From: Eledone cirrhosa
Taxonomy: Eukaryota
Reading direction: 5' to 3'
DNA length: 64,000 nt
Assembly: GCA_964016885.1 (NCBI GenBank)
Contig: OZ024764.1
Location: forward strand, 15,872,001 to 15,936,000
Shown here one piece after another: positions 44,701 through 53,700 of this stretch. The notes beneath the pieces were generated by a model. The model saw nothing but the letters and a program-made list of their open reading frames with translations. It did not search any database and had not been told where the DNA came from. Every line of letters starts with the position of its first letter. Position 1 is the first letter of the stretch. Made by a program: the position numbers and the translations under genes.

Positions 44701-47700
44701 TATGGTTGCTGCCCTGATCGTGTAACCTATGCCCGTGGCCCCAACTATGCTGGATGTCCCGGCTGTCAACATACTAGTTATGGTTGCTGTCCTGATGGTG
44801 TCACAACTGCTGAAGGCCCCAACAACGCAGGCTGTGTCACACGAACAACCCCTTCTTCCGGTAGATATATAATATCAGCATTATCATTATCATCTACATC
44901 ATCAGTTTCATCTACATTATCATCCTCATCATCATCATCCTCACCATCAGCATCAGCATCACCACCACCACCACCATTGTCATCATAATGATCATTTTCC
45001 TCATCACCACAACCACTGCCACCACCATCATCAAAACAACACTATGACTACATCACATTAAATATTAAAGTCTTTACTGTAATACTGTAAATATTCACAA
45101 CAATCTGTCCACCAGTAAAGATACTATAAACATTTAGTACAAAACACTGACTACATCACATTAAATATTAAAGTCTTTACTGTAATACTGTAAATATTCA
45201 CAACAATCTGTCCACCAGTAAAGATACTATAAACATTTAGTACAAAACAACACTATGACTACATCACATTAAATATTAAAGTCTTTACTGTAATACTGTA
45301 AATATTCACAACAATCTGTCCACCAGTAAAGATACTATAAACATTTAGTACAAAACACTGACTACATCACATTAAATATTAAAGTCTTTACTGTAATACT
45401 GTAAATATTCACAACAATCTGTCCACCAGTAAAGATACTATAAACATTTAGTACAAAACAACACTATGACTACATCACATTAAATATTAAAGTCTTTACT
45501 GTAATACTGTAAATATTCACAACAATCTGTCCACCAGTAAAGATACTATAAACATTTAGTACAAAACAACACTATGACTACATCACATTAAATATTAAAG
45601 TCTTTACTGTAATACTGTAAATATTCACAACAATCTGTCCACCAGTAAAGATACTATAAACATTTAGTACAAAACAACACTATGACTACATCACATTAAA
45701 TATTAAAGTCTTTACTGTAATACTATAAATATTCACAACAATCTGTCCACCAGTAAAGATACTATAATCATTTAGTACAAAACAACACTATGACTACATC
45801 ACATTAAATATTAAAGTCTTTACTGTAATACTGTAAATATTCACAACAATCTGTCCACCAGTAAAGATACTATAAACATTTAGTACAAAACAACACTATG
45901 ACTACATCACATTAAATATTAAAGTCTTTACTGTAATACTGTAAATATTCACAACAATCTGTCCACCAGTAAAGATACTATAAACATTTAGTACAAAACA
46001 ACACTATGACTACATCACATTAAATATTAAAGTCTTTACTGTAATACTGTAAATATTCACAACAATCTGTCCACCAGTAAAGATACTATAAACATTTAGT
46101 ACAAAACAACTCTATGACTGTATCACATTAAATATTAAAGTCTTTACTGTAATACTGTAAATATTCACAACAATCTGTCCACCAGTAAAGATACTATAAA
46201 CATTTAGTACAAAACAACACTATGACTACATCACATTAAATATTAAAGTCTTTACTGTAATACTGTAAATATTCACAACAATCTGTCTACCAGTAAAGAT
46301 ACTATAAACATTTAGTACAAAACAACACTATGACTACATCACATTAAATATTAAAGTCTTTACTGTAATACTGTAAATATTCACAACAATCTGTCTACCA
46401 GTAAAGATACTATAATCATTTAGTACAAAACAACACTATGACTACATCACATTAAATATTAAAGTCTTTACTGTAATACTGTAAATATTCACAACAATCT
46501 GTCCACCAGTAAAGATACTATAAACATTTAGTACAAAACAAGCCTTTGCTGTGATACTGATGTCTCCTTTAGTGAAGATGCTATAGACATGTGAATTGAG
46601 AAACTTGTTTTTAGATATTTTTGGGATGTTAAGATGTACATTACAGGATGTTAAGGGTTAAGATAAGGTCATAGAAACTTCTATCCCTATCTCTAAATAG
46701 TACTAACTTCCTTTTAACCCTTCTTCTACAGCACATTGCTCCCAGGGAAAAGAACAAGGTTCCTGTTCTGACTACACTGAGAAATATTACTTTGATGCCA
46801 CAGATAGAACATGTAAAAAGTTCTGGTATGGTGGCTGTGGAGGAAATGGGAATAGGTTTGATAATACTAGAGACTGCCAAGTTGCTTGTATTTATAACAG
46901 GGGAACTACAGACACCCGTACTCACCCTCACACTCGCACCAGGCCAACCAGAAGACCAACAACTAGAACACCAAGACCAACAAGACCTCATACTAAAGGT
47001 TTGTATTTTAGAAGAGATTATTTTGTAGATGTTCACCAATTTAGAACGTGTATTTTGGGTGTTAATGCTAGTTAATCGGAGAGGGAGATATACATGTGTT
47101 ATGAATGTTATATTTGTTTGTGTATCGTATCACGGAGAGTAACCAAAGCAGTCCAAGGGAATGTTGTGGTAAATATCATCATACGACTTTATAATTGTTT
47201 CTACGTTAGGCACAAGGCCAGCAATTATCCCAGTGCATTACTGGTACTTTATTTTATCGACCCCGTAAGGATGAAAGGCAAAGTTAACCTCGGCGGGACT
47301 TGAACTTAGAAAGTAAAGGGCCGTAACTCTATGCTACAAAGCATGGCGTCCGACCCTCTCCCAACACTGCCAATCCACCGCCCTACCGGTTTGTAAATAA
47401 ATTATATATTATAAACATCATATGACTTTATAATGTTTATAATATATAATTTATTTACAAACCGATTACCGGGGTTTAGCTGACTTGCCATAATGAACTG
47501 AATAGACAAATTAAGAGTTTAAGGAGGTACGGTCAAATAGCTGAGGCGTTAACCAGACCCGTAGTTGTATTTGTTGCTACATATTGTCTATGCTTGAGGA
47601 ATGAAATCCAGAGATGTTTACCTTGATGGTGTTGAGCTGCAAGAGAGAGATTTTCGAAGCGAAGCAGGAATTTTTCCCTTTCGGCGGAAATACATTCTCC

Positions 47701-50700: not shown

Positions 50701-53700
50701 CTAGCTAACTTTTGGGAGGCTCCCGTACAGCTCTGAGTTCTTCATCCTCAGTGTATACTGATTAATGTTCAGAGCCATCCTAGCATTCTCGTGTAGCACC
50801 CATCCACCACCTGAGTGAGTTTCTTGGTCAGTGTCCAAGTCTCAGACCTGTACAGCAGCACAGGCTCCACTACAGCTATGAAGAAACGGATCTTCAGGTC
50901 TTTACAAAGGTCCAACTGCCACACTGATCTCAAACAGAGGAGACTAAGGTTAGCTGGACATGCTCGCGCCGACACCCAGAGTTGACACTGCACTCAGTGC
51001 TCCTGAGGGAGCCCCTGCATGGACACACTGGAAGTGGGAGATCGAGGTTGATATATGTTGATGCCCTAAGGACAAACACTGGTCTGTTGGAGACGCAGGA
51101 CATGGCAGCGATGATGAGGGACAGAGACCGCTGGAGAGAACTCATCCATGAATCTCAGAAATTTTACCTGCCCTAGATATATACTATTATATTATCGGGT
51201 TGACTTTGCCTTTCATCCTTACGGGGTCGATAAAATAAAGTACCAGTAATGCACTGGGTAATTGCTGGCCTTGTGCCTAAAGTAGAAACAATTATATTAT
51301 CACCGTAAAGGTTATATCTCACATAATTATTTCATATAATATTGAATCTATGAAATTCTTATATTATTTATTTTGAGAACAATACCTTAACATAAGTGTG
51401 AGCGGCCAGCTATAGTTGGTTTGAACAGAAAGAGGTGAGAGAATTCTAGCCGGATGTTAAGGGTTAAGATAAGGTCATAGAAACTCCTATCCCTAACTCT
51501 AAATAGTTCTAACTTCCTTTTAACCCTTCTTCTACAGTATTCTGCTCCCAGGGAGAAGACCGAGGTGCCTGTTCTGACTACACCCAGAAATATTACTTTG
51601 ATGCCACAGATAGAAAATGTAAACAGTTCTGGTATGGTGGCTGTGGAGGAAATGGGAATAGGTTTGATGATGAAAGAGACTGCCTAGTTGCTTGTATTTA
51701 TGGTAAAGTAGCCCCCGACCCTAACACAAGACGTACTAGAAGACCAACAGTAGTAACAAGACCAACTAGAACTCCAGTTACTCATACCATTGGTTTGTAT
51801 GTTTTGATAATGCATGAAAGACTCTTCTTCTTTCTTATTCTATCTCTATTTCCTCTCTGTAAGACAGATGTGCTCCCTACAGATCTCTGCCCTCTGTGAG
51901 GTGTTTTCTCTGTGAAGATGTCAGTAAAATAAATGTTTTTAGGTAGGCTAAAAATGTAGCGAGACACTAATTTATCATTACTTACTATCTCTATTAAAGT
52001 TGGTAAAATTTCCAAAGCTGGTTGTAGGAAGGATAATGTTGCATTTATAGCGGAGATACTGGGTTGTATGAATGTAACAAGGAGACATGGTTTGTGTGTA
52101 TAATATTTAATCAACAATTTAACAGTATAGTTGACATGTCAATGAATAAACGAAAGAATGAAGCAAAGTTAGTAGTTACCGTTTTGATTGCCAGGCAAAC
52201 GCGGCTGGCAGAAGATGCCTGGCGAAGGCCAGGCGCCGGAAGGGCAAAGGAGTGGGAGAGAGCCCAAAGCTATTCGTTTTATAGGGCTCTGCTGGAAGTT
52301 ACAGAAAGGGTTCTACTTCCCGTCTAGATGTTGTTAATCTATTGGGGTTGTGAGTCACAACAAGGGAGGCTACTGCTACACATCCGTAAGGGATTAGAAT
52401 ATTTGGTAAAATAAGTTGACAGATAAACGGTAAATCTCTGAAAGGCCGTCTAACAAACTATTCTCCATGTTGGAGAGAAAAATCAAAACAGTGGGGATGC
52501 AAGTTACGAGCTGTTGCACTGTCAATATCCAGGCTGCAACTGTAAGCTAGTTTAGAAAGAAGGTGTTCTACTGCTGAGTGGAAGTGGTTATTTGTATTCA
52601 TACATCACCAACCTTACAGCGCTGGTGACTGACCAAGCACAACTAAATTATGCCACAGCGATAAAATAGTACTATCATGTCTTGTTACACCCCCCGCCTC
52701 TGGATCCTGGCTGACAGGATGGAGAATACATTGCCCTAGAGGTTGGCGAGAGAGACACGCCGAAAAAGCCACTCCACATCGCGGGGCTCACGCTTGCGGA
52801 CAGCCAACTCCTCCCCGATTTGAATATCAAAATAGGGACTCTACCCTAATACCCATCTATAAATTGTACTAACTACTTTTAACCCCTCTTCTACAACATT
52901 CTGCTCCCTGGGAGAACAAGGTCCCTGTTCTGATTACATCCAAAAATATTAGATATTTTTTGGATGTTAAGATGTATATTACAGGATGTTAAGGGTTAAG
53001 ATAAGAACATAGAAACTTCTATCCCTATCTCTAAATAGTACTAACTTCCTTTTAACCCTTCTACAGCGCATTGCTCCCAGGGAAAAGACCAAGGTTCCTG
53101 TTCTGACTACACTGAGAAATATTACTTTGATGCCACAGATAGAACATGTAAAAAGTTCTGGTATGGTGGCTGTGGAGGAAATGGGAATAGGTTTGATAAT
53201 ACTAGAGACTGCCAAGTTGCTTGTATTTATAACAGGGGAACTACAGACACCCGTACTCACCCTCACACTCGCACCAGGCATACTACCAGAAGACCAACAA
53301 CTAGAACACGTGGTGAGTACATTTTCTTTATTTGATAAATTACTTTGGTTTTGTTTGATTGTTGAGTAGGTTGGTCCCTAATGGAGAGTAGCTGGCCCCC
53401 AAAAAGCAGCTATGAAGATTTTCATACATCTATTGATATTTTTTCAACCAATTAAATTTCTGTAATTTTTAAACCAATTAAATTTCGGTAATTTTTTAAC
53501 CAATTAAATTTCGGTAATTTTTTAACCAATTAAATTTCTGTAATTTTTAAACCAATTAAATTTCGGTAATTTTTTAACCAATTAAATTTCGGTAATTTTT
53601 TAACCAATTAAATTTCGGTAATTTTTTAACCAATTAAATTTCTGTAATTTTTTAAACCAATTAAATTTCTGTAATTTTTTAACCAAACAAATGTTGATAT

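Follow-up and report, generated by a model that had tools for sequence, protein, structure and literature searches.

Papilins and their Kunitz domains

Drosophila papilin and MIG-6 of Caenorhabditis elegans belong to the papilin family of matrix proteins, and isoforms of both are documented in the accessible text of two papers (PMC11844652, PMC3160391). In the proteins that we scanned from D. pseudoobscura and C. nigoni every Kunitz domain lies after the lagrin repeats and there is no internal block, whereas in mollusc papilins a block of one to five Kunitz domains was flanked by lagrin repeats wherever the pattern scan saw both flanks. Here we analyse this block in the papilin gene of the octopod Eledone cirrhosa, where five tandem Kunitz exons, K1 to K5, stand between exons 12 and 18; the gene lies in a stretch of 64,000 nucleotides (assembly GCA_964016885.1, contig OZ024764.1, positions 15,872,001 to 15,936,000 of the forward strand), which we refer to as the window and to which all positions given below belong.

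The closest described relatives are the papilins of other octopods (Octopus sinensis XP_036370796/7, O. vulgaris CAI9744388, O. bimaculoides XP_014775570 and XP_052834080, and Argonauta hians model P0131), whose exons are collinear with those of the window gene. They share with it the order of lagrin repeats, Kunitz block, lagrin repeats and Kunitz array, as well as three to five block copies that are homogenised within each species, although their block cores are only ~55-63% identical to the window copies. Bivalve papilins, of which Crassostrea virginica XP_022333269-276 are examples, also carry a Kunitz block between lagrin blocks, with two to four block domains depending on the model, but here the copies are old, divergent and recognisable as positional orthologues between species. 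No squid, cuttlefish or nautilus papilin was found among the named matches listed (the best 120 of 335 and of 339), and no description of a cephalopod papilin Kunitz block was found in the titles and openings of the literature searched, a search that lay outside subscription papers and supplements. Outside this family, the FN3 repeats of tenascin-X and tenascin-W are also an extracellular matrix (ECM) domain that has been duplicated in lineage-variable numbers with concerted evolution, according to part of the source consulted (PMC1578592); they differ in domain and phylum, and the identity between the window copies ends ~85 nt into the intron.

The window gene probably carries an old mollusc Kunitz block whose copies have likely been homogenised by repeated copying of short exon tracts, and which is likely for the most part spliced in series into a longer, probably non-inhibitory spacer arm rather than serving as a combinatorial switch. 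The idea of a Dscam-like switch is thereby corrected, and the array becomes a clean, small case in which concerted evolution works at the level of single exons. In at least three octopod lineages this block of a matrix protein appears to have undergone separate homogenisation, whereas the bivalve copies have stayed old and divergent; in the window gene, a single copying event seems to have left behind a scar that can still be read. The mechanisms themselves are known.

Architecture of the locus

All five exons have AG/GT ends, open frames, lengths that are multiples of 3 and phase 1 to 1 symmetry (Table 1). The introns between them measure 0.8-2.3 kb, and the frame joined from exon 12 to exon 18 runs for 539 codons with 0 stops. 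The six-Cys Kunitz pattern is matched by every copy, and K1 and K4, the two copies scanned, score 64.4 and 66.5 bits against Pfam PF00014 (cut-off 21). The cores of K1, K2, K3 and K5 differ from each other by 0-3 residues and from K4 by 10-11. The donors read GTTTGT in K1 to K4 and GTGAGT in K5, and the branch-point motifs are TACTAAC in K1, K2 and K5 and TTCTAAC in K3 and K4.

A tblastn map to the Octopus and Argonauta papilins gives 20 collinear exons at 29.6-61.3 kb and agrees with the numbering of exons 12 to 18. The exons at 30.5-42.4 kb are collinear with residues 31-567 of O. sinensis papilin (40-89% identity), an alignment that places in the gene the N-terminal cassette of papilins (TSP1, ADAMTS spacer, TSP1); a near-identical O. 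vulgaris protein carries the Pfam domains TSP1_ADAMTS and ADAMTS_spacer1, the scan having been made on that protein. Further downstream, exons 12, 18 and 19 (lagrin pattern) and exon 20 (Kunitz) align to homologues in the lagrin-then-Kunitz order of the family; the C-terminal Ig and PLAC domains of papilins would lie past the end of the window. K1 to K5 are five genuine Kunitz-plus-linker exons of an octopod papilin. The initial annotation of this DNA, which was made from the letters alone, had named the gene as a papilin and had described the array with these lengths and phases, the near-identical cores beside a diverged K4, the donor and branch-point motifs, and an exon amplification in which each exon could be skipped in frame, all of which the present analysis bears out.

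Sequencing data came from four runs of one study, none of them on record as RNA. X1, X2 and X3 are DNA-like runs of one sample, possibly the source of the assembly, and X4 comes from a second sample. We read X4 as RNA on two grounds: its joints have GT..AG borders where splicing was predicted, and two intron bins of single-copy sequence have zero depth.

Homogenisation of the block

The exon count that the initial annotation had proposed for other cephalopod papilins finds the block at the corresponding position of the gene in four further octopods, with four copies in O. bimaculoides, three each in O. sinensis and O. vulgaris, and five in Argonauta hians. The lineage-specific amplification that it envisaged holds for the present sequences only, since the block itself occurs in all four of these species and in other molluscs. 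Within a species, the block cores are 73-100% identical in octopods and 33-73% identical in other molluscs (10 species with at least 2 copies, equal-length pairs only). In a tree of the 53-residue cores the five window copies form one clade (support 98/99) and the five Argonauta copies another (99/98), while the first and last block copies pair up in O. sinensis, where they are identical, and in O. vulgaris, where they are sisters. Approximately unbiased (AU) tests rejected a grouping by position for last copies (p-AU 5.6e-19), first copies (0.026) and K4 with the middle type of Octopus (0.003), on a short alignment in which some identical rows were left free. The copies are thus nearer to each other within species than to their positional counterparts in relatives, as is characteristic of concerted evolution.

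Across the 50-53 codons in which they encode the same residue, the K1, K2, K3 and K5 cores have 0 synonymous differences, and beyond a shared acceptor-side tract of ~85 nt the introns are 49-63% alike, a background level at which they are unalignable. Had plain tandem duplication occurred so recently that synonymous sites are still unchanged, the introns would have been duplicated along with the exons; copying of short tracts therefore fits better. Exon-limited gene conversion probably keeps the window copies alike; the copying could proceed by gene conversion or by template switching, and phase symmetry would let each new or overwritten copy keep the reading frame.

The linkers point in the same direction. 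The motif RTHPHTR occurs in K1, K2, K3 and K5 of the window and in Octopus only in the first copy, whereas the K4 linker resembles the middle type of Argonauta and Octopus. Four of the five window copies have the linker type of a first copy, and four of the five in Argonauta have the middle type; the Argonauta model has four near-identical Kunitz-plus-linker repeats and a fifth, with a linker type that differs from those in the window. On these sequences, its homogenisation is independent of that in the window.

Several further observations concern single copies. In O. vulgaris the first and third block copies both have KWAY where those of O. sinensis have KWGY (P0003, P0009), so that two paralogous exons share one change between these sister species. 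One DNA contig from run X3 (51428-51932) combines the flanks and tail of K4 with an acceptor tract and exon head of K1 type (15 differences); it is either a conversion allele or an assembler artefact, bubble removal giving the same picture. A variant of the K3-like linker (50540-50609, with G>A at 50579 and one more change) is present in DNA run X1 and in run X4; it represents either an allele or a copy missing from the assembly. We considered and rejected positive selection for the K1-type core, as pN is 0.10 and pS 0.07-0.08 against K4 (Fisher p 0.74-1.0).

One could extend the argument to a recurring conversion hotspot in octopods, where one exon type sweeps the array in each lineage, leaving pseudo-exon scars and allelic exon heads, and where tissue-specific skipping sets the arm at three to five domains or fewer. 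We regard this as speculative and rather unlikely in its full form.

A dead sixth copy and the origin of K5

Upstream of K5 lies a dead sixth copy, psiK, which was absent from the initial annotation. It is ~81% identical to K4, its acceptor AG reads AA, and it is cut after ~55 exon bases, exactly where the K5 unit starts; its reading frame ends after 17 codons, with a stop at the junction, which contigs of DNA runs X1 and X2 span. The K5 unit resembles the K1 unit (96%) over a stretch that starts 120 nt upstream of the acceptor and stops three bases short of the donor, and the end of the K5 linker resembles the last-copy linkers of Octopus. The simplest reading, drawn from one haplotype, makes K5 an old last exon whose body was overwritten by a tract derived from K1; the 5' stub of the old exon would survive as psiK, its 3' end and GTGAGT donor would persist in K5, and K3 may be a mosaic of a K1 head and a K4 tail.

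Function of the Kunitz domains

In alignments, P1 is Ser in all five copies and P1' is Asp or Glu, so that none has the Lys or Arg at P1 of a canonical trypsin inhibitor. A basic P1 drives trypsin inhibition, and D13A, which removes the Asp at P1', is one of three changes that turn the collagen VI domain into an inhibitor, according to the accessible text of one study (PMC6436896). The Kunitz domain of collagen VI alpha3 (PDB 1knt) is the best single-domain PDB match to K1 and K4; it shares with K1 to K5 its ECM setting and an acidic P1', and is described in the consulted parts of two papers as inactive, that is non-inhibitory (PMC6436896, PMC2740865), although it is a single domain and not part of a tandem array. 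Together with the Pfam matches, this match settles the fold of the window domains. Part of a report on C. elegans states that the Kunitz region of MIG-6S is dispensable for one function (PMC11844652). The window domains likely have a structural or binding role, given the Ser at P1, the acidic P1' and the collagen VI precedent, and judging from these residues they probably do not inhibit trypsin. They would act as modules spaced by Thr/Pro/Arg-rich linkers, the Thr/Pro-rich parts of which may be O-glycosylated. In the accessible part of one report, papilin marks a distinctive ring of squid skin cells and its function in cephalopods is given as unknown (PMC9839350); fast turnover of the arm is therefore a lead on a binding partner.

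Splicing of the block

In X4, contigs join K3 to K4 (50631>51538, depth 167.9), K4 to K5 (51792>53067, depth 208.3) and K5 to exon 18 (53312>53721, depth 449.6), each with GT..AG borders, and they continue unbranched for 79 nt into K4, 53 nt into K5 and all through exon 18. K3, K4, K5 and then exon 18 are joined one after another in this RNA-like run. A rival junction would break a contig of the de Bruijn graph at the donor or ~30 nt beyond the acceptor, and when all 31 skip isoforms were simulated beside the full form, 28 shortened at least one of the three X4 contigs; the 3 that are compatible involve only the loss of K1, K2 or both. No skip junction into K4, K5 or exon 18, or out of K3, K4 or K5, is present in the X4 contigs.

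For the 5' copies the evidence is less direct. The K1 contig departs from the genome at the K1 donor (depth 62.7), its partner exon not being displayed, and K2 is presumably transcribed because the end of a shared contig is at 53278, where a model with K2 places it, whereas a model without K2 would put it at 53279. Depth climbs smoothly from 5' to 3' and equally steeply across the three junctions without visible skipping, a gradient that fits 3' bias; four X4 contigs lie on one exponential (R2 0.996), from which a depth of 536 is predicted for the shared core and 524-529 is seen. K1 and K2 would on this basis be included in most transcripts.

A number of points weigh against serial inclusion and against the inferred copying. 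The splicing evidence comes from a single RNA-like run, not on record as RNA, of one sample of unstated tissue, and contigs drop rare variants, so that the limits on isoforms hold at the levels that contigs retain. The joints K1>K2 and K2>K3 are absent among the X4 joints listed, 525 further joints standing outside that list, and the joint comparison covered a stretch without exon 12. K1 depth amounts to 60-127% of expectation, varying with the assumed contig midpoint, and the bin with the start of K2 is almost without X4 depth (1.8). The K1-tail contig measures 103 nt, where a model with all exons included predicts 106 and skipping of K1 predicts exactly 103. The K4>K5 contig measures 207 nt instead of the predicted 186, and the reference start of K3 is therefore taken to be missing from the X4 graph, as an allele or through assembler pruning. 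Among nine molluscs with several isoform records, three have isoform models that lack a block Kunitz domain, a count that leaves out members of the Haliotis cluster and single-record species. The copy counts of Octopus and Argonauta derive from gene models, and conversion is deduced from one genome and the proteins of relatives.

Some of these points would suit a gene in which only the 5' copies vary, with K1 and perhaps K2 as cassette exons giving 2-4 isoforms with 3-5 Kunitz domains, which we consider doubtful. The 103 nt are what would be predicted if a joint from exon 12 to K2 coexisted with K1>K2, the depth of K1 might be as low as 60% of expectation, and inverted repeat pairs lie around K2 and around K2 with K3. 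By reasoning, however, a K2 that starts like K1, which takes one synonymous base, would give 103 nt without skipping, and the near-empty bin at the K2 start favours such a start; the depth gradient, moreover, is no less steep where skipping is not visible. K1 and K2 are identical to exon base 212 apart from their start, and therefore short reads cannot decide between skipping of K1 and a one-base allele.

The initial annotation had gone further and proposed a regulated module, any subset of the five exons being skipped by tissue or stage in up to 32 combinations. This we judge unlikely. Phase symmetry of all five exons would permit it, although phase 1-1 symmetry is usual for shuffled extracellular modules, and the donors of K3 and K4 are among the weakest of the gene. 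Isoform models without block domains are found in Crassostrea virginica (RefSeq models in which block domain 3, 4 or both are missing) and in Mytilus californianus and Saccostrea echinata (one domain missing from isoform model X4 of each), and isoform X2 of O. sinensis lacks one downstream Kunitz domain. Both O. sinensis isoforms found nevertheless keep all three block domains and differ only in that downstream one, the 28 conflicting isoforms and the unbranched K3-K4-K5 series in X4 do not support the proposal, and near-identical copies leave little but length to tune. For oysters, predicted gene models already annotate combinatorial skipping in the equivalent block, whereas window exons K3 to K5 are without such skipping in X4; one sample is compatible with rare or tissue-specific skipping elsewhere, and skipping in other tissues of the window gene is possible and would not be new in kind. 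The C. virginica papilin (P0383, P0396) has more than 40 lagrin repeats, and its block Kunitz domains are skipped singly and together in models.

The donor of K1 to K4 had also been called weak. This holds only in part: duplex energies with the 5' end of U1 are -7.9 (K1), -9.4 (K2), -6.4 (K3), -6.4 (K4) and -10.6 (K5) kcal/mol, and 6 of the 13 other donors of the same gene lie between -5.2 and -7.1 kcal/mol. The two weakest of these five donors, those of K3 and K4, belong to the exons seen with a single splice partner. For the GTGAGT donor of K5, ancestry of the terminal exon's 3' end would be a simpler account than regulation.

Three inverted repeat pairs surround parts of the block: 43080-44527 and 48687-49066 (96-98%) around exon 12 and K1, 47883-48169 and 49802-49945 (75-77%) around K2, and 47190-47289 and 51198-51296 (97%) around K2 and K3. 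Pairing of these in the pre-mRNA could promote skipping or back-splicing. A back-going joint, 53775>51624, was considered as exon scrambling and rejected, as its contig runs into a downstream Kunitz exon and 51624-51667 matches 61217-61260. With respect to RNA editing, no A>G exon change was present among the X4 rows listed.

Table 1. Positions of the papilin exons, shared tracts, dead copy and TTAA-bounded elements in the window
Feature	Position	Strand	Remarks
Papilin exon 12	44593..44860	+	three lagrin (Cys-rich) repeats, phase 1 end
Acceptor-side intron tract of K1, ~85 nt	46645..46731	+	88-99% identity across all five copies; reaches 46611 with K5 only
Kunitz exon K1, 267 nt	46732..46998	+	spliced at own donor in run X4
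Kunitz exon K2, 252 nt	49264..49515	+	exon bases 3 to 212 as in K1; presumably expressed, from contig branch point
Kunitz exon K3, 276 nt	50356..50631	+	K1-type core, K4-like linker end; joined to K4 in run X4
Kunitz exon K4, 255 nt	51538..51792	+	diverged copy; joined to K3 and K5 in run X4
Dead sixth copy psiK	52845..52951 (about)	+	acceptor AG reads AA; 17 codons then stop at K5-unit junction
K5 tract	52949..53309	+	96% identity to 46611-46971 (K1 unit); begins at 3-4 nt overlap with psiK
Kunitz exon K5, 246 nt	53067..53312	+	GTGAGT donor; joined to K4 and exon 18 in run X4
Papilin exon 18, 54 nt	53721..53774	+	lagrin repeat, phase 1 to 1
Element copy with amplified internal 72-bp unit	48674..49186	.	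K1-K2 intron; adjoins K2 acceptor tract
Interrupted element copy	50657..51457	.	fills K3-K4 intron
Intact element, ~196 bp	62129-62324		terminal inverted repeats bounded by TTAA

A TTAA-bounded element beside the exon units

The window contains an inverted-repeat element bounded by TTAA, with further copies in the introns of the block (Table 1), and its 72-bp internal unit makes up a 1.4-kb tandem array at 43080-44527. One might suppose that a TTAA-type DNA transposon, and not conversion, helped to duplicate the exon units, seeing that every shared tract begins at a AGGGTTAA motif, that 5 of the 9 such motifs on the + strand of the window are located there, and that two shared tracts adjoin copies of the element. 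We consider this improbable, as a matching end downstream of the donor was seen in K2 only, target-site duplications around the units were not seen, and the same homogenisation arose independently in the Octopus and Argonauta proteins. The element-end motif at the tract edges would be accounted for by a single ancestral insertion beside the tract, marking the common edge.

Integrity of the assembly

That some copies are an artefact of assembly is very improbable. The region is repeat-rich, with apparent frame errors in exon 19 and an N gap at 56122-56321, the ratio of shared-core depth is only 1.9-2.4 in the shallower run X2, and the assembly may itself have been built from the DNA runs. Each copy, on the other hand, has its own linker and unique introns, DNA contigs span the donor-side flanks of K3 and K4 as well as the psiK/K5 junction, shared-core depth in X1 is 4.1-4.4 times that of single-copy sequence, and X4 joins K3, K4 and K5 in assembly order and carries branches specific to K1 and K2. 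A mutually exclusive choice of one copy, of the Dscam type, is almost certainly wrong: tandem near-identical exons are often tied to such splicing, according to the accessible text of one paper (PMC9013439), but consecutive copies are joined in X4 (K3>K4, K4>K5), in place of one copy per transcript, and introns of 0.8-2.3 kb impose no steric exclusion.

Exon 19 (59068-59368) shows a frame shift near 59190-59212 relative to its homologues and measures 301 nt, which is not the multiple of 3 that its phases require; base errors of the assembly near low-complexity DNA are the likely cause. Elsewhere in the window, the minus-strand open frames 62763-63422 and 18027-18299 resemble DDE (Tc1/mariner-type) transposases and may be fragments of them.

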